64,000 bases of DNA from the NCBI GenBank assembly GCA_016217965.1, contig JACRFI010000016.1, positions 1,837-65,836 on the forward strand, in the 5' to 3' direction. The stretch is from Candidatus Kaiserbacteria bacterium. Lineage in GTDB: Bacteria; Patescibacteriota; Minisyncoccia; Phycocordibacterales; UBA2100. The translations under genes and the position numbers were made by a program. The notes beneath the pieces were generated by a model. That model was given only the letters and a program-made list of their open reading frames with translations, was not told the DNA's origin and did no database searches. Shown here one piece after another: positions 7,518 through 50,530 of the stretch (position 1 is the first letter of the stretch; every line of letters starts with the position of its first letter).

Positions 7518-9254
7518 ATGTACATCTCCGACACACATCTAAAATCCTTTCTCGCCGACGCGAACTTAGTGTCGCAGAAAGATTTCGATGCAGCAGAAAC
7601 AGAGGCCAAATCAAGCGGCAAAACGATAGGTGATATTCTGACGGCGCGGGGCGCTATCGGGGAAGACGAGTTGCGCCGCACGTACGCATACATTCTCGGC
7701 ATACCATTCGTCTCTCTCGTTGGCACGAGCATCCCATATGACACGCTATCTCAGATACCGGAGCCGGTTGCCCGCCGCAACAATATTATTTCGTACAGCC
7801 GAAAAGGGGATGAGCTTGAGGTCGCCATGCTCGACACCGACGATCTGGCCGCAATCGATTTCATAAAGAAAAAAACACACCTCAAGATATTGCCGCGCCT
7901 CACTGATGCGGCATCCATCAAAACCGCGCTCAAACAGTACCAACAGGGGCTCAAAGATACGCTGGGCGATGTCATTAAACGCGAAACGACCGCGCTCGAG
8001 AAAGAAAAGGGAGGGGATGGGGAAGCGGCGCTGAAACAAATGGCAGAAGGCGTGTCTGCCGTGCGCATCGTAGACACGCTCCTGCGCCACGCGAGCGCAC
8101 AGAACGCGTCCGACATCCATATAGAACCGCTAGAAAATTCACTCCTTATTCGCTACCGAATCGACGGCATCCTCCACGACGCGATGGAATTGCCGAAACA
8201 TGCAGCTCCTGCGATAACTGCTCGCGTTAAAGTGCTTTCGAACATGCGCCTCGACGAGCATCGGCTGCCACAAGATGGGCGTTTCAGTGCCGAGTCGGCA
8301 GGCGAGAGGATATCGTTTCGTGTATCTATATTGCCGACTTACTACGGCGAGAAGATCGTCATGCGCCTCCTTCGCGATTCTATTTCCGGCTTCACACTGG
8401 AGGGCATTGGTTTTCACGGCACGGGATTGGAACGAATGCATGATGCGATGCGCCGCACGACGGGCATGATACTGACGACCGGCCCCACTGGCGCGGGTAA
8501 ATCGACGACGCTCTACACTCTTCTCGACATCATCAACACGCCGGATGTGAACATCTCAACTGTCGAAGATCCTATTGAATATCAAATGGCGAGAGTGAAC
8601 CAAACGCAAGTGCGTCCGGAGATAGGTTTCACTTTTGCCTCCGGCCTTCGCTCACTTGTTCGCCAGGACCCGGATATCATCATGGTCGGTGAAATTCGCG
8701 ACAAAGAAACTGCTTCCCTTGCTATCAATGCCGCGCTCACTGGCCACTTGGTGCTCTCCACGCTCCATACAAATTCCGCGTCCGGTGCCATTCCACGCCT
8801 TCTCGACATGGGCGTCGAGCCATTCCTTCTTGTCTCGACGCTTCGCGTTGTCATCGGGCAGCGCCTCGTGCGGAAACTTGCGGCGCACGATCCGTATGAA
8901 CTCTCGCGCGACGAACAGACGCAACTCGAGAAATTAGTTGACCCCGCAGCTGTCCTGAAGCATCTCAAAGAAGAAAAAGCCGTTGCAAAAGAAATGACCT
9001 GGAACAAGGTCCCGTTCTACAAGCCAAAACCCACCCCGACAAGCCAAGACGGATACGCTGGCCGCATCGGCATCTACGAAGTCTTGCCGGTCACGTCGAC
9101 GATAAAAGACCTCGTCATGAAAAATGCGACGGGGGATGAAATAGACAAGCAAGCAAAGAGCGAAGGCATGCTCACAATGGCGGAAGACGGGATATTTAAG
9201 GCCGTCCAGGGTATAACCACCATAGAGGAAGTTCTCCGCGTCATTTCAGAATAG
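7518..9254 (+). CDS. pilB: type IV pilus assembly ATPase PilB (GspE family)
   Basis: N-terminal GspII_E domain, Walker A 'TGPTGAGKST', Asp box, Walker B, tetracysteine-less CPR-type. Confidence 0.9.
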   Translation: MYISDTHLKSFLADANLVSQKDFDAAETEAKSSGKTIGDILTARGAIGEDELRRTYAYILGIPFVSLVGTSIPYDTLSQIPEPVARRNNIISYSRKGDELEVAMLDTDDLAAIDFIKKKTHLKILPRLTDAASIKTALKQYQQGLKDTLGDVIKRETTALEKEKGGDGEAALKQMAEGVSAVRIVDTLLRHASAQNASDIHIEPLENSLLIRYRIDGILHDAMELPKHAAPAITARVKVLSNMRLDEHRLPQDGRFSAESAGERISFRVSILPTYYGEKIVMRLLRDSISGFTLEGIGFHGTGLERMHDAMRRTTGMILTTGPTGAGKSTTLYTLLDIINTPDVNISTVEDPIEYQMARVNQTQVRPEIGFTFASGLRSLVRQDPDIIMVGEIRDKETASLAINAALTGHLVLSTLHTNSASGAIPRLLDMGVEPFLLVSTLRVVIGQRLVRKLAAHDPYELSRDEQTQLEKLVDPAAVLKHLKEEKAVAKEMTWNKVPFYKPKPTPTSQDGYAGRIGIYEVLPVTSTIKDLVMKNATGDEIDKQAKSEGMLTMAEDGIFKAVQGITTIEEVLRVISE

Positions 9255-23807: not shown

Positions 23808-24455
23808 ATGAATACCTTTTCAGTAGGTGAGGCGATCAGGTTCGGGTGGGAATTATTCAAGAAACGTCCCTGGCTCGTGATCGGTGCATTTGTGCTGACT
23901 GGAATGCTTAGTGTCAGTATCCAGTTCACTTTTGGCCCAGAAGAAGGAGCTCCCGTGAATATCCCCGCTATGGTCCTCATTGGCATTTTGTCGGTTGTCG
24001 TGGGCACGCTCGCAGAGATAGGCATGATCACCTTTTCGCTTCGAGCGCATGATGCTATCGATACAGTCGGGATCAGAGACATCTGGAACCCGAAACTGTT
24101 CCTTCCGTATGTATTCGGCAGGATTCTGGTGGGAATCGTCGTCATCGTCGGACTCATCCTTTTAATTGTACCGGGCGTGATCTTGTCATTCGGTTTCATG
24201 TTTACTTCCTACCTGATTGTCGATAAAGGTCTCGGGCCTGTTGCGGCGATGAAGGAGAGTTGGCGTATCACGAAAGGTCATAAGTGGCAGCTTGCTTTGC
24301 TTGGTCTTGCATTTGCAGGATTAAACATTCTCGGACTGCTAGCCTTGGTAGTCGGACTCCTCGTCACGATACCCGTTACTTTGCTTGCGGCTGTGCACGT
24401 GTATCGAACTCTCGAGCACAAAGCGAGCGAAATGGTTTCCTCAACGGGCGTATAA
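23808..24455 (+). CDS. polytopic membrane protein (DUF975/YciC-like, hypothetical)
   Basis: 215 aa, 5-6 TM helices. Confidence 0.55.
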   Translation: MNTFSVGEAIRFGWELFKKRPWLVIGAFVLTGMLSVSIQFTFGPEEGAPVNIPAMVLIGILSVVVGTLAEIGMITFSLRAHDAIDTVGIRDIWNPKLFLPYVFGRILVGIVVIVGLILLIVPGVILSFGFMFTSYLIVDKGLGPVAAMKESWRITKGHKWQLALLGLAFAGLNILGLLALVVGLLVTIPVTLLAAVHVYRTLEHKASEMVSSTGV

Positions 24456-24464
24456 ATTCGTGAT

Positions 24465-24527
24465 ATGTCGGTAGTCATTTACACCGACGGCGGAGCGCGC
24501 GGCAACCCTGAGCCGTCGTCGCAATGA
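24465..24527 (+). pseudogene. rnhA 5' fragment (20 codons, MSVVIYTDGGARGNPEPSSQ*)
   Basis: Encodes the RNase HI N-terminal motif (I-YTDGGARGNPGP) with GC-rich codons unlike the intact rnhA 116 bp downstream; followed by GC-rich hairpins 24528-24640. Confidence 0.5.
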
Positions 24528-24642
24528 ACTGCTCCTCCTTGAGAACCCTCGGTTCTCAACGGCTTCGCCTGCTCTCCGACACGGGGAACTCCCGTTCCCC
24601 GACCCTCTTCCCCGACCCCGGATTACCTGTAGACTGTTTCTG

Positions 24643-25077
24643 ATGTCAGCGACACAAAACATAATTATTTATACAGATGGAGGAGCAAGAGGTAATCCGG
24701 GACCGGCAGGTGCTGGGATTGTTGCTTATAATGACGAGAAGAAGATTTTTGAATTAAAGAAATATCTTGGCGATAACCGGACAAATAATTGGGCGGAATA
24801 CGAAGCGCTTATTCTTGCGCTAACTGAGGCAAAGAAGAAGGGTCTGGGAGGAAAAGAACTTGAAATTCGCATGGACAGCGAACTTATTGTGCGGCAGATG
24901 ACGAATGAATATCAAGTAAAAGAAGAAACTCTCTGGCCGCAGTACATGAAAGCGCACAATCTTCTTGTTGCCCATTTTCCGAATGTGAAGTTCGTTCACG
25001 TCCGTCGTGAAGAAAACAAAGAGGCAGACAAGTTGGTAAACGAGGCTATAGACACAATGTTACAGGTCACTGATTAA
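24643..25077 (+). CDS. rnhA: ribonuclease HI
   Basis: 'IIYTDGGARGNPGPAG', catalytic D/E/D, 'YEALILAL' motif. Confidence 0.9.
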   Translation: MSATQNIIIYTDGGARGNPGPAGAGIVAYNDEKKIFELKKYLGDNRTNNWAEYEALILALTEAKKKGLGGKELEIRMDSELIVRQMTNEYQVKEETLWPQYMKAHNLLVAHFPNVKFVHVRREENKEADKLVNEAIDTMLQVTD

Positions 25078-25833
25078 ACTCTTTAGTCTAGATTTCTGCT
25101 CCAGATCGAGTCTCGCAATGACAGCTCGCAGATATTCTTCTGAGAGCCGCACGCGAAAACCTTTTCTCATCTCGTACAGACCTTTTGCTACGTCGCTTAT
25201 TTTTACACCGGAAGATAAGGCCGATTGTTGTGTATCTATCTGAAGCGCAATTTGTTCCAGCACCTCGAATTTCCTGTGAGGGTTAGATGGGAGCAAAATA
25301 CCGATTTCCGACACACTCGACACAGTGTCAGCGGGGTCTCTCTCGATATTCTTTTTTCTGAAATCTCTTTTTTGCTTTCCGACCACGGTAACGCCAAATG
25401 CTTCTACAAGGCCTGGATATCGTTGATATAAATACTGGTAGATGGCCCCGGGCTTTTTCTCGATTCGAGTAGCATATTCAGTATAGGTTATAGTTTTTTC
25501 TTGCGTCTGCGCAGTCTCCCAAAGTGGTGTGCGGTAAATTTTGTAAATGGTAACGATGAGTTCAAATTTTTTTACGTGTTCTTCGAGCAAGTGGAGCAAA
25601 TCAGTGGCGTTGCTCATTGTGCAGACGGCTTCGAGTATGTCGAATGCGCGAGTTCCATCTCTCAGCTCTTCGGAGATAGCTTCTAGAGACACCCTCTCCC
25701 CCCTTCCTTCTAGGTTTGTGATGGCACCTTCGCACTTTTCATATGAGACCTCCCTGAAACCAGGCATTGTTATGTCTCGGTTGATATTCTCGTCTGGCGC
25801 GAGCGCAGGTTTGGGGTCCCAGATCTCTTTCAT
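25060..25833 (-). CDS. hypothetical protein
   Basis: 257 aa, no motif recognised; 3' end overlaps rnhA by 18 bp on opposite strand. Confidence 0.45.
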   Translation of the reverse strand: MKEIWDPKPALAPDENINRDITMPGFREVSYEKCEGAITNLEGRGERVSLEAISEELRDGTRAFDILEAVCTMSNATDLLHLLEEHVKKFELIVTIYKIYRTPLWETAQTQEKTITYTEYATRIEKKPGAIYQYLYQRYPGLVEAFGVTVVGKQKRDFRKKNIERDPADTVSSVSEIGILLPSNPHRKFEVLEQIALQIDTQQSALSSGVKISDVAKGLYEMRKGFRVRLSEEYLRAVIARLDLEQKSRLKSLISDL

Positions 25834-32598: not shown

Positions 32599-34740
32599 AT
32601 GGCAAGAGACTATCCACTAGAAAAAGTCCGTAACTTTGGGATTGTCGCGCACGTGGACGCGGGCAAAACAACCACATCCGAACGAATTCTGTACTACACC
32701 GGAGAGAGCCATAAGATCGGCGAAGTGCACGAAGGGAACACGGTCACAGACTGGATGGAACAAGAGAGGGAGCGCGGCATCACCATCACCGCCGCTGCCA
32801 TCACATGCTTCTGGAACCCAACGTACATGGGGACGGATATATCGCAGAAAGTCCGCTTCAACATTATTGATACCCCAGGACACATCGACTTTACGTCTGA
32901 AGTGAAGCGTTCGATGCGTGTTCTCGACGGAGCGGTTGTCGTGTTTGACGGCGTTGCAGGCGTTGAACCGCAGTCAGAGACGAACTGGCGCTACGCAGAA
33001 GAAGCAGAAGTGCCGAGAATTTGTTACATCAACAAATTGGACCGCACCGGAGCGTCTTTTGAGAAGTCCTATGCGTCCATTCTTGATAGGCTTTCTACCA
33101 AGGCAGTTCGCCTGCAGATCCCAATCGGCGCTGAGGGAGATTTTGAAGGTGTCGTGGATGTTTTGGAAATGAAAGCGTTCAAATTCGAAGGCGAGATGGG
33201 GAAGAATGTCGTTGCATACGATATCCCGGATAGCCTCAAGGCCGATGCGCAGAAATATCACGATGAGGTGGTAGAACGAATTGTTGAGACTGATGATGCG
33301 ATGATGACGGAATTTCTCGAGGGGAAGAAGCCGTCGCTTGAGGCGCTCAAGAAGCAATTGCGCGCTGCCGTCTGCACGAACAAGCTCTTTCCAGTCCTCA
33401 CGGGATCGTCTCTCAAGAACAAGGGGGTGCAGCGCGTTCTTGATGCGGTTGTTGACTATCTGCCGTCGCCTCTCGATCTTCCATCGGCGAAGGGAATCAA
33501 TACTGATACTGGTGCCGAAGAAACTCGCCCAGCAACCGACGATGGACCGTTTGCTGCGCTTGTATTCAAGCTCCAAGTTGACCCATTCGTCGGCGCTCTC
33601 ACATTCTTCCGCGTATATTCTGGGCATGTTGCTGCGGGGGACACTGTATACAATTCTGCGAACAACAAGAAAGAACGCATTGGGCGCATGGTGCGTTTGC
33701 AGGCGGACAAGCGCGAGGACGTGAAAGAAGTTTTTGCGGGCGAAATTGCTGCATTCGTCGGCATGAAAGAAGTAAAAATTGGAAATACGGTCTGCGACGC
33801 AGAGCATCCAATTGCGCTCGAGAAAATAATCTTCCCGGAACCCGTTGTTTCGATGCGCATCGAGCCGAAGACAAAGGCAGACCAGGAGAAAATGGGCATC
33901 GCACTCTCGCGCCTTTCGGACGAGGACCCGACATTCCGCATCAAATCTGATCCGGAGACCGGAGAGACCATCATTTCCGGAATGGGTGAGCTGCACCTAG
34001 AGATAATCGTCGATCGCATGAAGCGCGAATTTGCAGTTGAAGCGACGACAGGAAAACCGCAAGTTGCGTACCGCGAGACGATAACAGGTACGGCGGATGT
34101 CGAATACAAGCACATCAAGCAGACAGGCGGTCGCGGCCAGTACGGCCATGTGAAGATCCGCATGAAGCCGCTCGAACCAGTCGAGGAGGGAAAAAAGGTG
34201 AAGAACAACGTCGAGCGCGAAGACCATTTCGAATTCATCAACAACATCAAAGGCGGCGTCATCCCGCAGGAATACATCCAGCCCATCAAGAAGGGACTCA
34301 AAGAAGCGATGGATCGCGGCGTTCTCGCGGGCTTTCCCGTTGTTGATGTATCAGTCGATCTCTACGACGGTTCATATCACGAAGTTGACTCGTCCGAGAT
34401 CGCATTCAAACTCGCTGCCATTAATGCATTCCAAGATGCGGCTAAACTCGCGAAGCCTGCACTTCTCGAGCCGATCATGAAATTGGAAGTCGTCACGCCG
34501 GAAAAATTCATGGGCGATGTGACGGGCATGATAAATAGTAAGCGTGGTTCCATAGAGGCTATGGGCGAGCGCGGCCAAGCGCGAGTCATCACCTCCAAAG
34601 TCCCACTTTCGGAGCTTTTCGGATTCACCACACAGCTTCGCTCCGCGACCGAAGGCCGCGGTGTTCCCAACGTCGAATTCTCGCATTACGCCGTTGTACC
34701 GCGGAATGTGGCAGACGAAGTTATTGCAAGCAGAAAGTAG
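32599..34740 (+). CDS. fusA: elongation factor G
   Basis: G-domain 'AHVDAGKTT', 'DTPGH', full five-domain EF-G length 713 aa. Confidence 0.95.
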   Translation: MARDYPLEKVRNFGIVAHVDAGKTTTSERILYYTGESHKIGEVHEGNTVTDWMEQERERGITITAAAITCFWNPTYMGTDISQKVRFNIIDTPGHIDFTSEVKRSMRVLDGAVVVFDGVAGVEPQSETNWRYAEEAEVPRICYINKLDRTGASFEKSYASILDRLSTKAVRLQIPIGAEGDFEGVVDVLEMKAFKFEGEMGKNVVAYDIPDSLKADAQKYHDEVVERIVETDDAMMTEFLEGKKPSLEALKKQLRAAVCTNKLFPVLTGSSLKNKGVQRVLDAVVDYLPSPLDLPSAKGINTDTGAEETRPATDDGPFAALVFKLQVDPFVGALTFFRVYSGHVAAGDTVYNSANNKKERIGRMVRLQADKREDVKEVFAGEIAAFVGMKEVKIGNTVCDAEHPIALEKIIFPEPVVSMRIEPKTKADQEKMGIALSRLSDEDPTFRIKSDPETGETIISGMGELHLEIIVDRMKREFAVEATTGKPQVAYRETITGTADVEYKHIKQTGGRGQYGHVKIRMKPLEPVEEGKKVKNNVEREDHFEFINNIKGGVIPQEYIQPIKKGLKEAMDRGVLAGFPVVDVSVDLYDGSYHEVDSSEIAFKLAAINAFQDAAKLAKPALLEPIMKLEVVTPEKFMGDVTGMINSKRGSIEAMGERGQARVITSKVPLSELFGFTTQLRSATEGRGVPNVEFSHYAVVPRNVADEVIASRK

Positions 34741-34784
34741 GTTGCGCTGGCAAAAATCCACAGTTATCGCTCAAATAGACTTGC

Positions 34785-34809
34785 ATTATCGCTCATAATG
34801 AGCGATAAT
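34785..34809. promoter_or_regulatory. perfect 12+1+12 palindrome ATTATCGCTCAT-a-ATGAGCGATAAT (operator-like) upstream of fic-like gene
   Basis: Half-site 'TTATCGCTCA' also at 34764-34774 and as 'ATGAGCGATA' overlapping the ATG at 34820. Confidence 0.5.
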
Positions 34810-34819
34810 GTGATTTAAT

Positions 34820-35875
34820 ATGAGCGATAGTAATCTCAGTCAAAGACAGGCTTCCATACTTGCCAGTATGGGACTTGATACAGACTATTCAGCAGAAAGC
34901 TTGGCGAACTTGTTCGACATTGCTCCTGCCCCAGCGACATTGCGCAGAGACATGCAAAAATTGGAATTACACGGCTACGTAACTCGGCGAGGAGAAAAAA
35001 GGGGAAGGAAATATGCAAAGACGGAACTTGGTGCCCTCTTGAGCCCCTTGGATGCACACGCGTACTTCCTCAAAGAAACAGATGTGCGCCGCGGATTAAA
35101 GACGTATCGTCACGGACTCTGGAATGCCGTACCTGAATCTCTTTTCACCACAGGTGAGCGAGCCGCATTCGCTGCTGCTACCGACATCTATCACGCGCGA
35201 TCGCGCGATATTTCCGAGGTCGTGCGTGCGAAGGAGCTTGAACGCTTCGTGATCGAGCTTTCGTGGAAATCTTCGAGGATCGAAGGCAATACGTATACGC
35301 TTCTTGATACCGAGCGCCTTCTGCGTGAGGGAGTGGAGGCACCCGGGCATGGGAAAGGCGAGGCTATGATGATTCTCAACCACAAGAAAGCGTTCCAGTA
35401 TATCTTGGAATCAAAAAATAAGCGTGAGTTTGTGAATAAGCATTTTGTCGAGGATGTGCATGGCATTCTTGTCGAGAATCTCGGCGTATCACGAGGATTC
35501 AGAAAGGGCGTTGTCGGGGTCACCGGCTCTTCGTATCGGCCTCTCGACATTCCCGCGCAACTGGAAGAAGAGACTGGCGTCTTGTGCCAGGCTGCGGCAC
35601 AGATCAAAGACGCGTATTCGCAAGCACTTCTCATGCTCGTTGGAATAAGTTATATACAGCCTTTTGAAGATGGCAATAAGCGCACCGCGCGACTCATTGC
35701 AAATGCGGTTCTCATTGCGCACGAGAAGGCGCCGCTCTCATATCGAAGCGTCGATGAAACGCTCTATCGCGAAAGTATGCTTACGTTCTACGAACAACTC
35801 TCCATCGTCCCAATGAAAAAGATATTCTCTGATCAATATCTTTTCGCCTGCGAACAGTATCTGAAAAGTTCGTAA
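34820..35875 (+). CDS. Fic/Doc-family protein with N-terminal wHTH-like region and degenerate motif [12 protein letters not shown]
   Basis: Fic/Doc core '[20 protein letters not shown]' (canonical HxFx[DE]GN[GK]R; His replaced by Gln). Confidence 0.7.
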
Positions 35876-35933
35876 AAACGGGTTTTCCGTCAAACACTCC
35901 AGTAGAATCTGCCAGCTTCAAGAGCCTGACCAT

Positions 35934-36081
35934 TGCCAAAGTGCCGCTTTCGGAGCTTTTCGGATTCACCACACAGCTTCGCTCCGCGACCGAAGGCCGC
36001 GCCGTCCCGAACCTTGAGTTCTCGCACTACGTCGTAGTACCACGTAATGTGCAGGAGGAGATAATTGCGTCTCGTAAGTAA
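35934..36081 (+). repeat. fusA 3'-end remnant copy 1 (encodes …[47 protein letters not shown])
   Basis: About 56 nt identical to 34601-34656 of resident fusA then diverged; ends with in-frame stop. Confidence 0.85.
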
Positions 36082-36129
36082 TTCCCAAATACCTGTCCCC
36101 ACCGCGGCCGCCCTGAGCGAAGTCGAAGG

Positions 36130-38412
36130 GTGGCCGCGTGTCATGATGTGTGCATGAACAAAAGCGTTGTAGCGTTTGTGGCAGTCGTCGCGTCGTTTTT
36201 CGTCCCCTTTTTCGCCTCGGCACAAGTTCCTACACCGTCTGCCGGAGGACCGTATTCTGGCGGCGTAAATCCAACCATCAGTTCCCAAAGTGGTACTTCC
36301 GTCGGCGTGTCTATCTCTTCTGTCGGGTCGAACACGTCTATTTCACAATCTTTTGTATGTCCGACGTTGATTCGCACCCTTGTCCGCGGTTCTCGAGGCG
36401 GTGATGTCGCTGGAGTACAAAATTTTCTCATCGCCCAAAAAGATTTGGCGGCAGGCAACAACACCGGCTACTTCGGTACTCTCACTGAAACGGCAGTGAA
36501 ATCGTTCCAGCGAAGAAATAATATAGTCTCAAGTGGCACACCAGGAACGACGGGGTATGGCCTCGTCGGCGCAAAGACACGTGCGGCGATCCAAAGAGCA
36601 TGTGCTGGATCAATGGCCGCACCAACCAATTCGTACTCGTCTCCATCACTAGGTTCGAATTCAGAAATAGACAAACTCCTCGCGCAGATTCAATCGCTTC
36701 AGGCGCAAATGAACCAGGAAGCTAACAAGAGCACTGGAAATTCTTCGGGGACAACGTATGTGCAAGGCTCGTACGCACAAACAAACGCGCCTGTGTATTC
36801 GGAAACGAATTATTACAATCAGGGATCATATACACCCACAGACGACCAGGTCCGACCAGCTTCACCACCGTACTATGGGGTTAACTATTTCGCATCTGGA
36901 TACGGGAATTTCCTCACGGACCAGTTCGATGTGTCAAGGACGCGCATCCAGAACGACATCGGACTCATGCAAAGCATGGGAATCAACGTCGTACGTATAA
37001 GCGTCGCCGGTTTCGCCAACGGGCTTGTGCCATGGACCTACAACCAACCGCGGGGACGAGAATATTTCGACACAGCAAATTGGGAGCTTGCCGGAAACAA
37101 CCTTGCAAAGTTGATCAAGCAATTTAAAGCAGCCCGCATAAAAGTTATTGTGGATTTTGTATCGATAAATTATTTCTTGTTCGCACCGAGCGCGACTGAA
37201 CTCGCCATCCACCCAGTAAGCCAGGCATGCAAAGACGGGTTTGCGTCCGGTTCGATGGGCGTATGGTGGCAGTGCCGGTATCCGAACAGATGGGATGATT
37301 TTGTATGGGACTATACGACCTGGGTGAACGGCATCGTGTGGCTCGTCGAGAATGATTCCGAGGCAGCGTCAAACGTCCTCTACTACGATCCGATCGGAGA
37401 ACTCCAATTTTCGGACCGGACAGGCACCGACATGAAGGCATTCGCGAACATCATTATCGCAAACAACAACATTCCGGCAGGGAAACTTGGCATATCGGTA
37501 CTTAATCCTGAATCGACCACTCCCGCCTCAATCGCGCTTCCGAACCTTAAAACTCTTCTCGATGCGGCAGGCAAAAAACTTTCGTTCATTGATGTGCATT
37601 GTTATCCTGGTATCTCTTGTGCGTTTGGTAGCCAGACTGTTGCCCAGTGGTTTACGGACGCATATACAAATGCGCGGAGATCATTTCCCGCATCTGAAAC
37701 AAAGTTTGTCGTGGGAGAATGGGGCTCCAATTATGATGGTGGAAAAGGCTTGGGCCAAGCGAATTACGATGCACAAGTTGTCAATTGGGCGAAATCCAAC
37801 GGCGATGTCACGGCGCTCGTGCACTGGAATCTCTATGATGACAATCCGAGTTACAACGAATATCACATCGGAGTTGCGCCGACGGCCGGCGTTGCGCAAG
37901 GTACACGAAATACCTATATGGTCCTCGGGACGATGCGCGGGGACTTAATCGATGGTGATTTTGAAAGTGGTATTTCGAAGTGGTTTAACGGCGGCAGTGG
38001 GTCGAACCTAAAGCAGATGCCCATCGAAGCAGTGACGGGTTCGTACTATGGACGCATGCAGGTGACGGCACCCGGACAAAATTGGTTCTGCACGCCAAAT
38101 TTCGTGCTCGCCAATGGCACGCATGTCGCGACCGGCGGTTTCATTCGGACAGCACTTGCAAATGTGACGCTTTCGACCCGATATTTCGATTCAAATTGGA
38201 AACTGATCGGGCAAGATGACATCACGCTTACACAACCAGCGGCTTGGCAGTGGCGGCAAATACAAGAGCAATCGCTGTCAAAACGCGCTACTACGTGGAC
38301 GGGTGCCCCTTATGCTGCACAGGTTTGCTTCGTTTTGAACGGTCCAGCTGGCACATCCGCTACAAATCCGCAGTATCTTGATTTGGATTCGATCACGGTG
38401 CACGATTATTAG
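36130..38412 (+). CDS. secreted peptidoglycan-binding-domain protein with GH5-like TIM-barrel glycoside hydrolase domain
   Basis: Probable true start ATG 36154 (MNKSVVAF…, signal peptide); PG_binding_1-like 'GDVAGVQNFLIAQKDL…GYFGTLTETAVKSFQ'; 'GINVVRISV' and 'VVGEWGSNYDGG' GH5-like strands. Confidence 0.6.
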   Translation: MAACHDVCMNKSVVAFVAVVASFFVPFFASAQVPTPSAGGPYSGGVNPTISSQSGTSVGVSISSVGSNTSISQSFVCPTLIRTLVRGSRGGDVAGVQNFLIAQKDLAAGNNTGYFGTLTETAVKSFQRRNNIVSSGTPGTTGYGLVGAKTRAAIQRACAGSMAAPTNSYSSPSLGSNSEIDKLLAQIQSLQAQMNQEANKSTGNSSGTTYVQGSYAQTNAPVYSETNYYNQGSYTPTDDQVRPASPPYYGVNYFASGYGNFLTDQFDVSRTRIQNDIGLMQSMGINVVRISVAGFANGLVPWTYNQPRGREYFDTANWELAGNNLAKLIKQFKAARIKVIVDFVSINYFLFAPSATELAIHPVSQACKDGFASGSMGVWWQCRYPNRWDDFVWDYTTWVNGIVWLVENDSEAASNVLYYDPIGELQFSDRTGTDMKAFANIIIANNNIPAGKLGISVLNPESTTPASIALPNLKTLLDAAGKKLSFIDVHCYPGISCAFGSQTVAQWFTDAYTNARRSFPASETKFVVGEWGSNYDGGKGLGQANYDAQVVNWAKSNGDVTALVHWNLYDDNPSYNEYHIGVAPTAGVAQGTRNTYMVLGTMRGDLIDGDFESGISKWFNGGSGSNLKQMPIEAVTGSYYGRMQVTAPGQNWFCTPNFVLANGTHVATGGFIRTALANVTLSTRYFDSNWKLIGQDDITLTQPAAWQWRQIQEQSLSKRATTWTGAPYAAQVCFVLNGPAGTSATNPQYLDLDSITVHDY

Positions 38413-38419
38413 TCTTCGC

Positions 38420-38485
38420 TTCGTTCTCGCACTATGCGATTGTCCCAAAAACGTTGCAGATGAAGTGATCGCCTCGCGCAAATAG
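38420..38485 (+). repeat. fusA 3'-end remnant copy 2 (…FSHYAIVPKNVADEVIASRK*, 1-nt frameshift)
   Basis: Matches last about 22 codons of fusA. Confidence 0.75.
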
Positions 38486-38554
38486 AAAACGTCACATGGC
38501 ATAGCCTGAACAATGTCCACAGGCGTCTCCGCTGCCCCATTGAAAAAAGCAAGA

Positions 38555-38562
38555 GGGGGGGG
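38555..38562 (+). repeat. G8 homopolymer tract 13-20 nt upstream of ATG 38575
   Basis: 'aagaGGGGGGGGtagcattgggacATG'. Confidence 0.8.
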
Positions 38563-38574
38563 TAGCATTGGGAC

Positions 38575-39858
38575 ATGAAAAACATCCCACGGGTTGGTGT
38601 GCTTATCAGTGCTATTCTCCTTGCGCCTGCGTTCGCGGCAGCTCAAGACGCGCTCGGAAGTCCTATGCCTTCAATGGGTCCGGGAATAATTTGCCAAGCG
38701 GAAATGAATGCCGCCATTGCGGTCGGTCTGCAAAATAGGGAAAAGGCCGAGGTAAAGGCGCTCGATGCGTGCCTAAAAAATAACGCGTCGACACTACCCA
38801 TGCCCTCAATGACCTCTGAGGCAAGCGACTCTGGCAGCGTAACATCGGGTATTACCCCGAACACGAATGGCAGCGGCGCTTCATGCCCCAAAATTCTTCG
38901 TACGCTTTTCGTCGGCAGCACTGGGGATGACGTGGTGGCATTGCAGGTATTCCTTATTGCGCAAGGCGATCTTGCCGCAGGCAATACCACCGGCTACTTT
39001 GGCGTTCTTACGGAAGCGGCGGTAAAAGCATTTCAGTCGGCGCATGGTATAGAGAACGCTGGCATGGTGGGTCCGAAGACTCGCGCGGCGATCGCGCAAA
39101 TATGCGGCGGTACCGTTTCCACGAACACCCCTTCCTCTAGCGGCGGTTCAACGGGCAATCAATCGCTCATTGATTCGCTTCTACAGCAGATAAAAGTTCT
39201 GCAGGAGCAGATAAAGAATATCTCAGGGAACACAAACACAAACACAAATACGAATACAACGTCAACCAACACCAATACGACATCAACCAATATCAACACA
39301 ACTTCTTCGACTGCCGCGACTCCGCAAACTTTCGACTACATGGCGTCATTCCATTCCGGCCCGCAATCTGGGGGCGACCAGAGCCTGGCGCCGTACTTCG
39401 GCCAGAACCCGTCGGGACCATGGTGGTATGGGTATGCGGATTCCGTAACCGGCGCGACGAAGTTCATGTCGTGGGACGGGACCGTCCCCTCATGGATCGG
39501 CGGCTATGGAGGATTCCCGCGTCTCTACAACTGGGGTGGGTACGTCTACGGCTCGTCGGCAATAATCGTTTGGGTGGCACCGCGTGCGGGTACCGTCACG
39601 ATAGCCGGAAGTGTCTCGCGACAAGGGATTGGCGGGGCTGATGCGACGTGCTCAGGCGCGACGCCGATCGTCGCGTATGTCTATCAGGATGGAAAGGCTT
39701 TGTGGTCGGCGAGCATGATGCCGGGAGATGCTGGCAAAGCGTATTCACTCTCCGGCACAGTGAATCAGGGCAGCAACGTGTCGTTCATCATGCAGCCGGC
39801 AGGTGCAAGCCCGGCCTGCAACATCGTGTACTGGAATCCGACTGTCGTGCTTAAATAA
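38575..39858 (+). CDS. secreted peptidoglycan-binding-domain protein with (TN)n linker
   Basis: Signal peptide 'MKNIPRVGVLISAILLAPAFAAA', PG_binding_1-like 'DDVVALQVFLIAQGDL…GYFGVLTEAAVKAFQ', 'NTNTNTNTNTTSTNTNTTSTN' linker, C-terminal beta domain. Confidence 0.65.
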   Translation: MKNIPRVGVLISAILLAPAFAAAQDALGSPMPSMGPGIICQAEMNAAIAVGLQNREKAEVKALDACLKNNASTLPMPSMTSEASDSGSVTSGITPNTNGSGASCPKILRTLFVGSTGDDVVALQVFLIAQGDLAAGNTTGYFGVLTEAAVKAFQSAHGIENAGMVGPKTRAAIAQICGGTVSTNTPSSSGGSTGNQSLIDSLLQQIKVLQEQIKNISGNTNTNTNTNTTSTNTNTTSTNINTTSSTAATPQTFDYMASFHSGPQSGGDQSLAPYFGQNPSGPWWYGYADSVTGATKFMSWDGTVPSWIGGYGGFPRLYNWGGYVYGSSAIIVWVAPRAGTVTIAGSVSRQGIGGADATCSGATPIVAYVYQDGKALWSASMMPGDAGKAYSLSGTVNQGSNVSFIMQPAGASPACNIVYWNPTVVLK

Positions 39859-39879
39859 AAAGTTCGCATACCCACTAAC

Positions 39880-39945
39880 CCAAAGTTTGATGCTGGGTGC
39901 TGAATTTGGAATTCTCTCACTACGCTATCGTCCCCAGAAATGCCT
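39880..39945 (+). repeat. fusA 3'-end remnant copy 3 (internally deleted; …EFSHYAIVPRN…)
   Basis: 'ccaaagt' junction plus 'gaattctctcactacgctatcgtccccagaaatg'. Confidence 0.65.
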
Positions 39946-40044
39946 GCCCCGTTAGAACTTTAGTTTCTAATGGGGTTGCTAACTAAGTGATAGGCGCGAG
40001 GACGCTCGTATTGACGAATTGGCTAATTGGGCTACTATTGGCGC

Positions 40045-40314
40045 ATGAGCAAGATAACCATGCCTACATTTGCGGCGAGCGAGGCGAAGAATAACTTCGG
40101 GAGGCTTATCGATGCCGCGCAGCGCTCGCCTGTCGCGATCAAGCGGCGCGGCCGCTCCGTTGCGTTCGTCATCTCGCCGTCAGACATGGAGACGATTGAG
40201 GATCTATGGCTGGGTATGCAAGCGCATAAAGCGATGCGGCGAGGTAAATTCTTGAGCGCTGAGGAAACGAAGAAATATATGGACGGTGTGCTGAAGCACC
40301 ATGCTCGACGTTAG
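40045..40314 (+). CDS. Phd/YefM-family antitoxin
   Basis: 'MPTFAASEAKNNFGRLIDAAQRSPVAIKRRGRSVAFVISPSDMETIEDL' YefM fold signature; overlaps toxin gene by 14 nt. Confidence 0.7.
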   Translation: MSKITMPTFAASEAKNNFGRLIDAAQRSPVAIKRRGRSVAFVISPSDMETIEDLWLGMQAHKAMRRGKFLSAEETKKYMDGVLKHHARR

Positions 40315-40576
40315 GATACTCGACGAGGCGCAGGAAATCCTGGATGCGCTATCAGAAAAACATCGGCATCAAATTGTCAAAAAGATCGCACTGCTCGCGC
40401 AGCAGCCATATCACCCGCGTTCGAAACAGTTGGAAGGATATGCGCCGCTTCGACGCATGTCTTCTGGAGAATATCGCATTGTGTATTTCATTGAGGGCAA
40501 AGTTCTGAAAGTTCCGCTTATCGATAAGCGAGGGGATAACAAAGTATACCGACGACTTAAGCAGTTATTCGGATGA
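40301..40576 (+). CDS. RelE/ParE-family toxin
   Basis: 91 aa, 'PLRRMSSGEYRIVYFIEGKVLKV' RelE/ParE C-terminal core. Confidence 0.75.
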   Translation: MLDVRILDEAQEILDALSEKHRHQIVKKIALLAQQPYHPRSKQLEGYAPLRRMSSGEYRIVYFIEGKVLKVPLIDKRGDNKVYRRLKQLFG

Positions 40577-40605
40577 TAAATTGCTTTGAACGTCGTTATC
40601 GAAAA

Positions 40606-40773
40606 AAAGCCTGCTCTCCGAAATGTTCGGATTTACAACACAATTACGGTCGTTGACGGAGGGAAGATCTGTCCCAAACCTCGAGTTTTCTCACTACCCC
40701 AGTAGGTGATTGTACTCAATCAGCTGTTGTCCCTCGAAATGTTGCGGATGAAGTTATTGCGGCGAGGAAATAG
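40606..40773 (+). repeat. fusA 3'-end remnant copy 4 (…[26 protein letters not shown]-[28-bp insert]-VVPRNVADEVIAARK*)
   Basis: Translated similarity to EF-G C-terminus ending in in-frame TAG. Confidence 0.8.
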
Positions 40774-40785
40774 AAAAATCCTCTC

Positions 40786-40836
40786 CACACACTGCCGCGC
40801 TTAATGCGCGGCAGTGTGTCATGATTACCGCATTAC
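40786..40836 (+). promoter_or_regulatory. 14-bp perfect hairpin (CACACACTGCCGCGC-ttaat-GCGCGGCAGTGTGT) followed by GTGTCATGATTACCGCATTAC box
   Basis: Same architecture at 20008-20048, 36103-36147, 42595-42636 upstream of paralogous genes. Confidence 0.55.
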
Positions 40837-42577
40837 ACATCACCCATCTCTATTCATGCTAAAAAAAGTCGCATTCAGCAGCATCGGATTACTCCTCCTA
40901 ATCTCTCCGTTCGCAGCATCTGCAGATCTCCTTAGCGACCTCCAAGCGCAGATACAAGCACTTCTTGCGCAGATTGCGGCATTGCAGGGGACATCAATGA
41001 TCCCTGACTCGGACACTCCGACAGAGCATCCGACATCATCATGCCCACATCTGACAGTCGCTCTCCAACGGGGCAGTCGCGATGCAAATACGGGAGGACA
41101 AGTCTCAGAACTTCAAATATTTCTCGCAAATCGTTACGGTCTCAACGACGATGATATCGTGAGCGGATTCTTCGGCGCAATGACAGAGAAATACGTCATC
41201 AAATTCCAACAAGAACAAGGACTTCCCGTGTTCGGCCTCGTAGGTCCTATGACCAGGGCGAAGATCGCAGAGGTGTGCGGGGGCATCATCTCTCCGTCGA
41301 ATGCCGCATCCGAGGCAAACCCGGTACTTGTCTTTCCGCCTCGTAGAATCACGAGCGACACAAACAGCTTCTCCAACAGCTTCTCCGCGTCGCCGATGTC
41401 AGGAAGTGCGCCACTCACCGTAACGTTCTCCATGACTCAATACGGGGCGAGATCCCTACTGATAGATTTCGGAGACGGTGCGGTACAAAAAACCGACGAC
41501 TCTTGCCTTGTCGGCCCGGATTGTAAAGAACCGTACGTACGTTCGCACACTTACATCTCACCAGGCACGTATATTGTCCGACTCTCAAATGCATCCGTCT
41601 GCGACGCGCCACCCGGGGTACTGTGTTCACTCGCCCCCGATCAGATTGTCGGTACGGTGACGATCACCGTCACGGACGGGACCCGCAAATGTGGTGTAAA
41701 TTCATTTAAAGTAGTGAACCAATGTGGCACAAGCGAATACAGAAATGCGTACTTCCAGTGTTATGACGGGTATGAGCAGACCATCGGTGAGAGCAGTTCG
41801 TGCAAACCGCCCTCGGTATGGGAAGAATATGCCCGCGATGCGTGTGCCAAACATTGTTCGAACACTGCAAGCAGTATTACCGTCACATCACCCAATGGCG
41901 GAGAGCAGATCGAAATCGGACAGCCACATAAAATTACTTGGAAACAAGTCGGGCTCTCGAATGTATCCATTGCACTGTACAGAGACGATCAAGTGAAACA
42001 GTGGATTGCGCGAGATATTAGCTTGGAGAAAGATGCCGTTGACACATATGCGTACGTCTGGACACCGGCGCAAACCGACACTAACATTAATGCGTTCACA
42101 ATCTACATCACCGGCCCAAAAGCCGACGGCACAGGCTCCATCGACGACAAAAGTGACGCTCCATTCAGTTTTGCCAGTGATGCAAGCGGAGTGTGTCAAG
42201 TTGTTGACCTCTACGCCACGCAAGTCCCGGGGTATGTCTACTCTGATCTCTTTATGGTCGTGCGCGGACTGCCGACAGGATCTGGTCAGGTTAGTATCAC
42301 CGGAGCAGATTCATGGAACAATTTGATGTTCTCTTCCCAGGGGCTTGATTCTGCGGGAAATCTCCTCTTGCAAGCAAATCAAACGATTAATTCGACGGGT
42401 GTCTCGTATATTCTTGAGCGCGAGAATGCCATCACGCCAATTTCCTACGGCGGTGTATCAATATCGTGTCAATCTATTTCTGGCACGACCGCATCCGCAC
42501 AGAGTACGCAATTAGCATCAGCACTCGTTGCACTCGAATCAGCCCTCAAAGCAATGCTGAAATTGTTGGGGCAATAG
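40814..42577 (+). CDS. secreted peptidoglycan-binding-domain protein with PKD-like domains
   Basis: Probable true start ATG 40856 (MLKKVAFSS… signal peptide); coiled coil; 'GQVSELQIFLANRYGL…GFFGAMTEKYVIKFQ'; 'FGDGAVQKTDDSC' PKD-like. Confidence 0.65.
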   Translation: MCHDYRITHHPSLFMLKKVAFSSIGLLLLISPFAASADLLSDLQAQIQALLAQIAALQGTSMIPDSDTPTEHPTSSCPHLTVALQRGSRDANTGGQVSELQIFLANRYGLNDDDIVSGFFGAMTEKYVIKFQQEQGLPVFGLVGPMTRAKIAEVCGGIISPSNAASEANPVLVFPPRRITSDTNSFSNSFSASPMSGSAPLTVTFSMTQYGARSLLIDFGDGAVQKTDDSCLVGPDCKEPYVRSHTYISPGTYIVRLSNASVCDAPPGVLCSLAPDQIVGTVTITVTDGTRKCGVNSFKVVNQCGTSEYRNAYFQCYDGYEQTIGESSSCKPPSVWEEYARDACAKHCSNTASSITVTSPNGGEQIEIGQPHKITWKQVGLSNVSIALYRDDQVKQWIARDISLEKDAVDTYAYVWTPAQTDTNINAFTIYITGPKADGTGSIDDKSDAPFSFASDASGVCQVVDLYATQVPGYVYSDLFMVVRGLPTGSGQVSITGADSWNNLMFSSQGLDSAGNLLLQANQTINSTGVSYILERENAITPISYGGVSISCQSISGTTASAQSTQLASALVALESALKAMLKLLGQ

Positions 42578-42649
42578 TTTCAATGGGATCTATCCACACA
42601 AAGCTGCCTCGATCGAGGCGGCTTTGTGTCATGATGAGGGTATAACGGC

Positions 42650-43276
42650 ATGGCTTCTTTCATCATGTTTAAAAAGGTAGCGTGTGGCCTCGGATTATTT
42701 CTGCTCGTTACCCCGCTCGCTGCATCAGCGGCTCCGGTGGACGAACTCTACCTGGAATCACAATTGCACGTGTCAGAGATACTCGCTCTTCAAGTACGTT
42801 TGAACGCATTATTGACGCAGCTTGCGATATTGCAGGGACAACAGACCAACCAAGTGCCACTGCATCCAACCACGTGCCCCAAGCTCACTGTTTCTTTTTC
42901 ATTCGGTGCGTACGGCAATGATGTCTTAGAACTCCAGCGATATTTGGTCACCAACGGCTATTTAACCGCAGATTCAGTCACAGGGTTTTTTGGCGATACA
43001 ACCGATGCCGCTGTCAGGCGTTTTCAACTGGACCGAGGCATTGTGCATGGAGGAACGACGCGAACGACCGGGATCGGGATAGTGGGCCCTGCGACGAGGT
43101 TGGCGATCGCGACAAGTTGCAGTTATGGAACAGACGGCAATTACGCAACATCAACCATCGCCGCTTCGACATCGCCATCAACTACGAATACGGATCTAGT
43201 GTCGCAACTCACGATCATCTCGCAACAATTGCAGATATTGCGCGAACAAGTTCTTAACCTGCAGGCGCAGCATTGA
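42650..43276 (+). CDS. secreted peptidoglycan-binding-domain protein (short paralog)
   Basis: Signal peptide, 'NDVLELQRYLVTNGYL…GFFGDTTDAAVRRFQ', C-terminal coiled coil; RBS 'gaggg' 9 nt upstream. Confidence 0.65.
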   Translation: MASFIMFKKVACGLGLFLLVTPLAASAAPVDELYLESQLHVSEILALQVRLNALLTQLAILQGQQTNQVPLHPTTCPKLTVSFSFGAYGNDVLELQRYLVTNGYLTADSVTGFFGDTTDAAVRRFQLDRGIVHGGTTRTTGIGIVGPATRLAIATSCSYGTDGNYATSTIAASTSPSTTNTDLVSQLTIISQQLQILREQVLNLQAQH

Positions 43277-43336
43277 AAAGAGTATCCCCACTGCAGCCGC
43301 CCAATAGGGCAGTCGCGTTCGTTTTGGCTGTACACT

Positions 43337-44857
43337 GTGTCCATGCTTTCGCGCGCACGTGCATTTGGGAGGATGATGCTTCGTATCCTGTTACTCTTAG
43401 TAATATTTGGCGTGTTCGCGCCGAACTTTACATTCGCGCAGTCCTGTTCCATTTCAATTTCGCCCCAGACGGGCGTTGCGGGTTCGGGAAGGACGTTGTA
43501 TTGGTCCGTCAGCGATTATGTCGGGACGCTCGACATCAGTGGTATCGGACGTGTGGTTACAACATGTTATGCATCGGGAGAGGGTAACGGCGGTTGTACC
43601 ATGCCCCCAGTTTCCGGATCTCTCGGTATTTCGCCGTCCTATTCCACAACCTACACTGGTACAGCAGTAGACGTCTGGGGGACGGATACCTACTGCTCCG
43701 ACACCGCATACGCCACGCCCGCATACTCCCAGGCTAGTTACTACGCCCAATCCTACTACCAATCCTCATACTACAGCCCCGCCTCCTGCTCCGTCTCCCT
43801 CTCGCCAAACCCCAAATCATACGCCGGCAGCGCCACGCTCTCATGGTCCTCCTCGCAGGCACACTACTGGGTCTACATCAATAACGTCGGCTATGTGGGA
43901 GGGAGCGGCTCCATTTCAGTCTCACCATCATCAAGCACCGACTATTCCTGCTACGCGAATGGCTACGGCGGCTCTGACGGCTGGCACAGCTACACACTCA
44001 CGGTGAATCCGCCTGCCAACTGTTCCTTCAACGGCTCGACAGTCAATCACGGCAGTTCAGTCACGGCATACCAAGCAGCCACCGTCCCATACGGGCAGTC
44101 ATGTGCTTCACAATCACAATCACGCAGCTGCTCAAACGGCACGCTCTCGGGCACATACCAGTACGAAAGCTGTACCGTCGACAACCCAGCGCCTACTTGC
44201 TCTATTGCTGTCGCACCAACCACCATCACATCAGGAGAGTCTTCAACACTCACCTGGTCCTCATCAAACGCTACGACTTGCACCGGCACCAATTTCTCAA
44301 CTGGTGGTGCGACATCAGGCTCCACATCGGTCTCTCCTTCATCTAGCACCAACTACTCTGCAAGTTGCACTGGTACTGGTGGCACGACAGCATGCACTGA
44401 CACGAGCAGTGGAGGAGGGGGCGACACCACAGCCACTCTGTCAGTTGCTTGCACCGAAAGCTGGGCATGCACCGGTTCTCCAAGCAACACCATCACACAC
44501 ACCTTAGCGAATTGCTCGACAGAAACCGTTGACACCTGCGTCACGCCAGAGTTTTGTACCACAGGCTCCGCCACCTGCCTCTACAACGCGGTCTCAGGCT
44601 CCATCAGCGCTTCCCCCCGCTTGGTACGATCCGGCGCCACCACACAAGTCTCGTGGAGCACTGACGATGCGTCCTCGTGCACCGTCACAGGCAATGGAGA
44701 CACGTGGACCGGCACCACAGGCTCACAAACATCAAGCCCGATCACCGAACTCACCACCTACACCATCCATTGTGATGATGGTGATCCTGACAGTACACAA
44801 GATGATTTCACAGACAGGGTGATTGTGGTGAGGTTGCCGGGGTGGTTGGAGTTATAA
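43337..44857 (+). CDS. secreted Cys-rich Ig-like repeat surface protein (paralog of 47073 gene)
   Basis: Signal peptide, repeated 'C…SLSPNPK…TLSWSS…', Ser/Thr/Gly-rich; last about 360 aa about 85-90% identical to 47073 product; C-terminal 'VRLPGWLEL'. Confidence 0.6.
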   Translation: MSMLSRARAFGRMMLRILLLLVIFGVFAPNFTFAQSCSISISPQTGVAGSGRTLYWSVSDYVGTLDISGIGRVVTTCYASGEGNGGCTMPPVSGSLGISPSYSTTYTGTAVDVWGTDTYCSDTAYATPAYSQASYYAQSYYQSSYYSPASCSVSLSPNPKSYAGSATLSWSSSQAHYWVYINNVGYVGGSGSISVSPSSSTDYSCYANGYGGSDGWHSYTLTVNPPANCSFNGSTVNHGSSVTAYQAATVPYGQSCASQSQSRSCSNGTLSGTYQYESCTVDNPAPTCSIAVAPTTITSGESSTLTWSSSNATTCTGTNFSTGGATSGSTSVSPSSSTNYSASCTGTGGTTACTDTSSGGGGDTTATLSVACTESWACTGSPSNTITHTLANCSTETVDTCVTPEFCTTGSATCLYNAVSGSISASPRLVRSGATTQVSWSTDDASSCTVTGNGDTWTGTTGSQTSSPITELTTYTIHCDDGDPDSTQDDFTDRVIVVRLPGWLEL

Positions 44858-45405: not shown

Positions 45406-45411
45406 GCTTCG

Positions 45412-48953: not shown

Positions 48954-48958
48954 TCTAT

Positions 48959-50158
<1,200 letters not shown>

Positions 50159-50529: not shown

Positions 50530-50530
50530 C

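Follow-up and report, generated by a model that had tools for sequence, protein, structure and literature searches.

Patescibacteria have tiny genomes with few recognisable mobile elements, and to our knowledge the movement of DNA between them is poorly understood. They take up DNA by natural competence (PMC10633639). The systems closest to the case described here are known from other bacteria. In streptococci, the 3' ends of tRNA genes, of rplL and of rpsI are classic sites for ICEs (integrative and conjugative elements; PMC4701971). Partial copies of conserved gene ends also mark past insertions, for example in the tycheposon arrays of Prochlorococcus (bioRxiv 10.1101/2020.12.28.424599). Folded DNA is a substrate in two further systems: CTX-phi integrates as folded single-stranded DNA (ssDNA), with exchange of one pair of strands and replication thought to finish the process (PMC3442271), and the attC sites of integrons are recombined as hairpins (PMC4792948). 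The present analysis concerns positions 24465 to 24642 of a 64,000-nt stretch of Candidatus Kaiserbacteria DNA (GenBank assembly GCA_016217965.1, contig JACRFI010000016.1), the whole of which is referred to below as the window. These positions, directly upstream of an intact rnhA gene, hold a stranded copy of the rnhA 5' end followed by a spacer that belongs to a family of small, hairpin-rich elements. The members of this family share a three-part architecture and recur at gene ends, and the gene-end copies that flank them have diverged in the manner of coding sequence. We regard the fragment and its spacer, with about even confidence, as the footprint of a small, non-autonomous, non-coding insertion element that targets conserved gene ends in Patescibacteria.

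The spare direct copy of the rnhA 5' end, here termed copy (a), occupies 24465-24514 on the forward strand and consists of an ATG, 16 codons and 2 nt (MSVVIYTDGGARGNPEP). The first-pass annotation, made from the letters of the window, had taken it for the N-terminal start of an RNase HI gene. A profile built from 51 relatives bears this out: searched against the 2091 six-frame peptides of the window, it matches copy (a) over profile positions 3-21 with 27.6 bits (E=3.5e-7), and the intact rnhA is the sole other match. The reservation that such a fragment might be too short to be meaningful did not hold at this E-value. Copy (a) matches the N-terminal strand, with the motif of the first catalytic Asp (YTDGG); the full RNase H domain (about 135 aa) with the remaining catalytic residues is missing from the fragment, in which homology ends after 17 codons. 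The homology stops at 24514 (GAGCC|GTCGTCGCA), where the left end of the element begins. What had been described as a 20-codon rnhA fragment (the open reading frame, ORF, MSVVIYTDGGARGNPEPSSQ followed by a stop codon, 24465-24527, forward strand) is therefore rnhA in its codons up to 24514, whereas the last four, TCG TCG CAA TGA (SSQ and stop), belong to the element. The spacer was also considered as a decayed rnhA interior and rejected, since no similarity to the RNase H profile is found past codon 17 in any frame over 24440-24660.

The 20-codon ORF ends in a TGA that shares bases with the ATG of a 39-codon ORF (24524-24643; ATGA), whose own TGA in turn shares bases with the ATG of rnhA (TGATG). 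Judged from the letters, this overlapping stop/start chain could be a translation relay from the upstream DUF975 gene to rnhA, or a coincidence. No evidence for translation of the 20-codon or the 39-codon ORF was found.

The DNA between the two rnhA starts had been set down as an anonymous hairpin-rich spacer. The hairpins and the CCCCGACCC repeat that were reported after the fragment are present as described, but the spacer is not anonymous: 24515-24628 is a copy of a conserved, GC-rich element of about 110 nt whose family is found at the ends of other genes in other Patescibacteria. The earlier proposal of gene-end replacement by homologous exchange can be kept in part. The gene end was duplicated or replaced, and because the spacer is a family member the event is better described as insertion of an element than as plain exchange.

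The core of the element (24515-24611) contains three hairpins. It opens with the motif GTCGTCGCA (24515-24523), the constant left end of the family, and a C-rich linker (GCTCCTCC); these are followed by hairpin 1 (TTGAGAACC-CTC-GGTTCTCAA, 24539-24559), a small variable hairpin (GGC-TTC-GCC, 24561-24569) with the linker CTGCTCTCCGACA, and hairpin 3 (CGGGGAAC-TCCC-GTTCCCCG, 24582-24601) with a C-rich tail. At the boundary between the core and copy (b) the 11-nt direct repeat TTCCCCGACCC occurs twice (24595-24605 and 24608-24618, 13 nt from start to start), a doubling confined to the window copy, as the other family copies read GTTCCCCGACCCCCTCCC once. Then comes copy (b), an inverted segment of rnhA (CCGACCCCGGATTACCT, 24612-24628), and a 14-nt spacer ahead of the present rnhA start (24629-24642, forward strand), in which neither a Shine-Dalgarno-like sequence nor a consensus promoter was found. 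The duplicated 5' segment attached to the gene, designated T' (MSATQNIIIYTDGGARGNPGP, 24643-24705, forward strand), includes (c), the partner of (b) at 24690-24706. Copy (b) is complementary to (c) at 15 of 17 positions and to the matching part of copy (a) at only 10 of 17.

Folding as RNA and as ssDNA predicts hairpins 1 and 3 together with a (b):(c) helix that leaves the rnhA start codon looped out (z-scores of -3.5 for RNA and -4.45 for ssDNA). Of the features of a leader-peptide attenuator, a short upstream ORF and the predicted (b):(c) helix are present, the alternative (a):(b) helix being weak (10/17). No U-run terminator was found at the element. The element occurs once in the window, where each motif is single and the covariance model, run with its filters off, returns one copy; a within-window repeat was therefore rejected as an account of the spacer.

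The family was collected from one metagenome collection by means of a gapped pattern of 28 specified bases that covers the two hairpin stems only, and 19 metagenome loci were returned (L-numbers below denote metagenome loci compared with the window). Twelve loci, and in addition L103, which is identical to L100 over the region shown, align with the window through the whole core, including the linkers that the pattern left unspecified. The core consensus reads GTCGTCGCA, GCTCCTCC, hairpin 1 (TTGAGAACC CTC GGTTCTCAA), CG, the small variable hairpin, CTGCTCTCCGACA, hairpin 3 (CGGGGAAC TCCC GTTCCCCG) and ACCCCCTCCC. A covariance model was trained on 13 sequences, the window and the twelve loci; it assigns 96 bits to positions 24530-24611 of the window, itself part of the training set, and adds two diverged copies, in L006 (33.8 bits) and as a second copy in L099 (33.1 bits). 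The family total is therefore 13 close and 2 diverged copies, with a conserved, GC-rich core of about 100 nt. With the diverged copies included, 7 of the 17 stem pairs are changed on both sides and 99.2% of the cells are still paired, a figure that leans toward structure because the alignment is model-fitted. The core is non-coding, since core lengths differ by non-multiples of 3, and its identity among the four rplL-linked copies is 85-98%. The few loci with taxonomy name as hosts Yonathbacteria, a relative of Kerfeldbacteria and a 'Patescibacteria group', in addition to the Kaiserbacteria of the window.

Apart from tRNA and rRNA, neither the window nor the 19 loci gave a match at the gathering threshold of Rfam 15, and at E<=10 only a 21.6-bit match of one hairpin to a plastid 3'UTR was obtained. 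Searches by blastn yielded no match that would indicate a phage or plasmid origin, a protein search using the spurious ORFs through the core returned nothing, and a shallow literature search found no described equivalent. The element is apparently undescribed. Six 'type 2' loci on AT-rich contigs share the two hairpin stems only, without direct or inverted repeats, and were kept out of the family. The type 2 sequence (L089, L094, L096, L097, L101, L106, L107) reads GGGAGAGGTT, then GGAGAACC GTA GGTTCTC, then AGGGGAACC TT GGTTCCCC. A scan of viral contigs returned only this unrelated sequence, and one type 2 contig is labelled a giant-virus metagenome-assembled genome (MAG) in IMG/VR.

In all 13 close copies, part of the adjacent gene end is repeated in direct orientation beyond the core, and in 12 of them an inverted copy (b) stands directly after the core. 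The layout of these 12, read on the pattern strand, is copy (a), core, copy (b), a loop that often holds the gene's own terminator, and the intact gene end (c). Each flanking repeat covers the outermost 10-60 nt of the gene beside it, with a boundary no more than a few bases away from the start codon, the stop codon or the tRNA terminus. Copy (b) comprises the last 10-27 nt of that terminal segment. The target gene stays intact beside the element. Targets used at the 3' end are tRNA genes (tRNA-Arg(gcg) twice, tRNA-Arg(cct), tRNA-Thr(ggt), tRNA-Thr(tgt) and tRNA-Gly(tcc)), rplL in four loci (ending in AGAKVTLK and stop) and rpsI in one locus (ending in APQWSKR and stop); those used at the 5' end are rnhA, in the window and the diverged L006 copy, and a glycosyltransferase gene in L090. 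At the tRNA targets, the inner boundary of the repeat lies in the T-loop or at the acceptor/T-stem junction. The strand of the core relative to gene transcription is opposite at 5' and 3' targets. Some loci have near-identical flanking repeats, as in L098 (26/27) and L090 (33/34 in the inner part, the first 4-5 codons being unrelated). The L006 copy, from a Kaiserbacteria-like MAG, lies between RecJ and rnhA and repeats the layout of the window: a stranded start (GTG, continuing VEKIIIYTDGGARNN) at 7704-7749, a core at 7752-7826 and an inverted copy at 7830-7842 that is complementary to 7905-7916 of the intact gene.

Some features of single tRNA loci may be recorded here. The stranded tRNA 3' copies in L092 (about 3620-3660) and L104 (about 9010-9050) share a type of 9-nt insertion (CGCTTCGCT / CGCTACGCT) whose position in the T-loop region is also the same, and a related GCTTCGCT motif is found in the middle hairpin of the core and in the loop beside the tRNA in L088. 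In L099 (76-200), the second, diverged copy is followed by what appears to be a tRNA-Met of which only the 3' two-thirds are present (anticodon loop TTCATAA, T-arm and acceptor strand); this piece gives no ARAGORN call and lies directly upstream of an intact tRNA-Thr(cgt).

The spare and the in-gene copies were compared in seven protein-coding cases, namely the window, L006, the four rplL loci and rpsI. Third codon positions hold 41 of the 50 base differences (binomial p=2e-12), and 38 of the 43 differing codons are synonymous, a proportion that reaches 21 of 21 in the rplL and rpsI cases; the changes include transversions. In the window, 12 of 15 aligned codons differ between copy (a) and the intact start, 30 of 45 bases are identical and the longest identical run is 5 nt, while over 16 codons the third positions hold 12 of the 16 base differences and the IYTDGGARGNP motif is intact. 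Because the differences concentrate at third positions, the divergence took place between working genes, and a local duplication with later decay is excluded; the first-pass view that the fragment is not a local duplicate is thus upheld by this mark of protein-level selection. The stranded rplL copies carry the lineage-specific residues of their own gene (VGGKVNLK in L102, AGGKVTLK in L105), and copy (b) tracks the in-gene copy, since in two orthologous pairs, L091/L093 and L088/L095, changes in (c) go with matching changes in (b). The stranded copies may have served as functional gene ends until recently, with a fast turnover and copies from different alleles or lineages, or, less readily explained, they may still be selected.

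In the explanation that we prefer, the element would have inserted just inside the 5' end of rnhA, so that the stranded segment 24465-24514 keeps its ancestral place behind the DUF975 gene and rnhA now starts from the element-proximal copy at 24643-24705. The latter, possibly together with the rest of the gene, would have come from a diverged lineage, either along with the element or later, the gene staying intact through duplication or replacement of its end. The element may be moved by a recombination function acting in trans (none is linked), and the (b):T' hairpin may matter for integration, by analogy perhaps as a folded single-strand mimic of the target duplex.

The direction of this replacement was assessed from position and composition. 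The ATG of copy (a) lies 9 nt past the DUF975 stop, and in the closest relatives rnhA starts 0-26 nt past that stop. The GC content at third codon positions (GC3) is 0.76 in copy (a), which falls in the upper 9% of genome stretches of the same length, and 0.24 in the first 21 codons of the intact rnhA, in the 0.6% tail of 21-codon stretches; none of the 61 other gene starts in the window has a GC3 as low as that of T'. For rnhA as a whole the GC3 of 0.41 is the second lowest among 62 ORFs. The rnhA start of L003, which is among the closest relatives by RecJ, DUF975, DUF1761 and MscL, matches copy (a) at 24 of 30 bases and T' at 19 of 30. The ancestral spacing, the GC3 and the L003-like codons make copy (a) more likely the former resident allele, and we take it as its relic with a confidence somewhat above even. 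The GC argument for a foreign fragment, as first suggested, is turned around by these values, since the compositional outlier is T' (0.24) and not the fragment (0.76). Compared with 110 of 120 homologues, the N-terminus of the intact rnhA has 4 extra residues, an argument that is weakened by the native long starts in L108 and L109. Two other tests were set aside. A nearest-relative test on 36 nt of the duplicated segment was uninformative because synonymous sites are saturated, and a test for phylogenetic discordance of rnhA gave a mixed picture: its product is 85-88% identical to Kaiserbacteria homologues, and the identity of 85-88% to L082, L083 and L087 is 2.6-3.0 standard deviations above the RecJ-based expectation, but ComEC and HIT also point to L082.

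Among about 85 related loci with the conserved gene order HIT-RecJ-(DUF975)-rnhA-(MscL)-ComEC, the element is found only in the window (with its twin L001) and in L006. A search for the same remnant in relatives, which the first-pass annotation had suggested, therefore succeeds in L006, at the same rnhA site, and fails in nearly all the other loci. The window core is near-identical to copies at tRNA and rplL sites of other lineages and distant from the L006 core at the same rnhA site, which argues for independent arrivals rather than common descent.

Several observations weigh against an insertion of this kind or in this direction. The sample is biased to one subfamily, because it was ascertained by an exact two-stem pattern. 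No integrase, transposase or reverse transcriptase is found repeatedly in the neighbourhood of the copies; leaving aside spurious ORFs across the core, no protein family recurs near the 12 metagenome copies, and no recombinase gene lies between DUF975 and rnhA. Mobility is read from distribution only, there being no pair of empty and filled sites within one species, and the lack of any identical stretch longer than 5 nt between the window copies argues against a recent crossover by a tyrosine recombinase or RecA. At the four rplL loci, the more alike the rplL sequences (identity 0.66-0.81), the more alike the cores (0.85-0.98), a trend that fits either vertical descent of a constrained functional element or transfer mainly among relatives. 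L090 departs from the common layout: the element (2205-2412), at the 5' end of a minus-strand glycosyltransferase gene, has the intact gene to the left of the core, opposite to the usual side, and its closing stem is not target-derived. With regard to direction, the nearest rnhA relatives have 5' ends similar to T', and the long N-terminus and the codons of T' are like those found in L109 and L110, where the 257-aa gene downstream of rnhA is also present. At the tRNA-Arg loci, the stranded copy misfits the 5' acceptor strand of the resident tRNA, whereas the in-gene copy fits. The likeness of T' to these relatives and the misfit at the tRNA-Arg loci both favour the opposite course unless the whole gene was imported.

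These last points bear on the rival that survives best, to which we assign a modest but appreciable probability. It invokes the same element moving in the opposite direction: a closed stem-loop, copy (a)-core-copy (b), would be the mobile unit, with a stem taken from the gene end of a previous host, and would have entered the gap between the DUF975 stop and the start of rnhA, just outside the latter gene, so that the fragment is foreign and the present gene native. The affinity of T' and the gene body to the same relatives would then be expected, as would the long N-terminus like that of L109 (MSVAQRILIYTDGG), the shared codon run AGA GGT AAT CCG GGA and the incompatible acceptor strands in L088 and L095; moreover, an insertion flanked by direct repeats is not assignable to either side by structure alone. 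It is difficult to reconcile with the pairing of copy (b), which at 15 of 17 positions follows the in-gene copy rather than its supposed stem partner, copy (a). The fragment ATG at the ancestral DUF975 spacing would have to be a coincidence, the compositional outlier is T' rather than the fragment, and a carried stem arm has no reason to end exactly at start or stop codons. The points on either side as to which copy is native would fall into line if the element had come in along with the adjacent gene, or with much of it, and had left only the recipient's gene end behind.

A cis-acting RNA switch is in our estimate improbable, and clearly more so than the reversed insertion. Here the core would be a sensor or a protein-binding domain, and copy (b) would pair with either the decoy (a) or the gene end (c), controlling translation start at rnhA and 3'-end formation or stability at the tRNA, rplL and rpsI sites. 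Such a function would account for a core that is more conserved than the rplL coding sequence and tracks host divergence (the identity ranges given above), for hairpins kept via compensatory changes, for the covariation of the (b):(c) complementarity in orthologous pairs, and for the predicted (b):(c) helix that loops out the rnhA start codon (z-score -3.5). The core strand is, however, opposite at 5' and 3' targets, so that one RNA cannot serve both if it is co-transcribed with the gene. Pairing fails to explain amino acids that are kept through synonymous changes, transversions included, most relatives lack the element at the same locus, and both a terminator-type U-run and an Rfam match are lacking.

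It is very unlikely that the locus is simply the scar of an exchange, homologous or illegitimate, with a divergent donor whose intergenic DNA or gene 3' end would make up the 115-nt spacer. In favour of this account, Patescibacteria have natural competence (PMC10633639), comEC is found three genes downstream of the locus, and the window also contains four fusA 3' remnants that separate cargo genes between fusA and tuf. This account is nevertheless largely refuted by the membership of the spacer in a family found at unrelated gene ends and in other lineages, and the junction of the fragment is the constant left end of that family. The C-terminus of a donor RecJ or DUF975 gene was rejected as the source of the spacer, its best alignment to 80 RecJ C-termini scoring 31 against a shuffle mean of 29.5, and the DNA of relatives at this locus holds nothing like 24528-24642. 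A local tandem duplication of the rnhA start with neutral decay, or an assembly chimera, suggested by direct repeats 178 nt apart in a MAG, has a negligible probability and is refuted for practical purposes: neutral decay would hit all codon positions alike, the same architecture occurs at 14 other loci, a second assembler's contig is identical, and an identical run of 5 nt is too short to mislead an assembler.

The intact rnhA gene (24643-25077, forward strand) codes for a 144-aa protein of the RNase HI family (Pfam RVT_3, 3.5e-19; RNase_H, 6.9e-15); the NCBI record of this product is under Candidatus Kaiserbacteria. Its upstream neighbour, which marks the ancestral context, codes for a membrane protein of the DUF975 family (23808-24455, forward strand; Pfam DUF975). 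The RecJ loci closest to that of the window are from Kaiserbacteria and Paceibacteria MAGs. A second assembly of the run SRR12113407 has the identical sequence at the locus and, coming from the same sample, is only partly independent; variants of the locus from other strains are not on record. Downstream, a gene for a 257-aa protein (25060-25833, reverse strand) overlaps the 3' end of rnhA by 18 nt and has no Pfam or PHROG hit. This protein (hyp257) was considered as a co-inserted ORFan, as a word-indexed search found only itself, and the idea was dropped when tblastn returned syntenic homologues of 32-34% identity in L109 and L110, at the same position downstream of rnhA and on the opposite strand. 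It is a fast-evolving, lineage-restricted resident gene that lies outside the insertion.

The fragment had also been called a 5' counterpart of 3' remnants at fusA and rpsJ. The fusA remnants are real, but no element copy lies beside them, so that the term counterpart applies in a loose sense only; the rpsJ remnant was not located. Between fusA (32599-34740) and tuf (48959-50158) lie about 14 kb of cargo (34741-48958), including a Fic/HTH gene, four PG_binding_1 secreted proteins, a ricin-lectin protein and an S11 peptidase/YkuD protein. Four fusA 3' remnants follow successive cargo genes (35935-36078, 38421-38482, 39897-39947 and 40596-40770); in the first, near-identity to fusA over about 75 nt gives way to strong divergence, which marks a mosaic breakpoint. 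Neither an integrase nor the hairpin element is present in this island. Two large secreted proteins (43337-44857 and 47073-48680), one of them with N-terminal ricin-type lectin domains, are 82% identical over a C-terminal region of about 360 aa, which looks like a recent paralogous duplication inside the island. After tuf, at the place expected for rpsJ (50299-52726), there are an AbrB/MazE-like ORF (50299-50529), a Fic/Doc-like ORF (50531-50932) and a 415-aa ORF (51479-52726) that looks like an IS481-type DDE transposase; the AbrB/MazE-like and IS481-type names come from reading the sequence and not from a family search.

The element recurs at the ends of essential genes in several class-level lineages. 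Together with its covariance model it provides a concrete, searchable marker for recent DNA exchange in Patescibacteria, and it accounts for a class of puzzling 'gene-end remnants' in their assemblies. For annotation it carries a warning, as short ORFs that mimic gene starts or ends beside GC-rich hairpins are likely to be element footprints. A bolder idea, which we consider improbable, is that of a new kind of mobile DNA without a recombinase, in which a constant folded core bears programmable arms, one sense and one inverted, derived from the target and together directing the integration of the element. By analogy, such arms might act on imported ssDNA in competent Patescibacteria, for instance, with the hairpin mimicking or splinting the target, in a nucleic-acid-guided system of less than 250 bp. 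If it is true that target-derived arms direct integration, this would be a minimal programmable insertion system.

Among described mobile DNA, the MITEs (miniature inverted-repeat transposable elements), Correia elements, repetitive extragenic palindromes and bacterial interspersed mosaic elements (REP/BIME) and Rickettsia palindromic elements are likewise small, non-coding, rich in hairpins, devoid of a transposase and located near or within genes. Unlike MITEs and these other small repeats, the present element has no terminal inverted repeats, its flanking repeats are of variable length (10-60 nt) instead of fixed target-site duplications of 2-10 bp, and it is present as one copy in 64 kb. 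Remnants of the tycheposon type, or of homology-facilitated illegitimate recombination, carry protein-coding cargo and have junctions without a constant structured core. As in the XerCD substrates of CTX-phi and of integrative mobile elements exploiting Xer (IMEX), and as in attC sites, (b) and T' fold, in silico, into a hairpin that mimics the target duplex. This resemblance is a structural one only, as the targets are gene ends of varied sequence rather than dif or attI and no Xer or IntI sites were identified.

The closest parallel is with the integrative elements (prophages, ICEs, integrative and mobilizable elements or IMEs, and the integrase-less cis-mobilizable elements or CIMEs), which use the same classes of target, leave the gene intact and place a partial copy of the gene end on the far side. 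In integrase att sites within tRNA genes, the boundary lies at the T-loop or at the acceptor/T-stem junction, as it does in this element. In comparison with these, the element is much smaller (about 130-250 bp), has an integrase neither inside nor near its 13 copies, and is distinguished by its constant structured core, its inverted target copy and its use of a 5' gene end; the identical overlap of about 6-8 bp or more at both junctions is absent from the window, where the longest run is 5 nt. On a conservative reading, it would be a miniature, integrase-less addition to the integrative elements that target gene ends.

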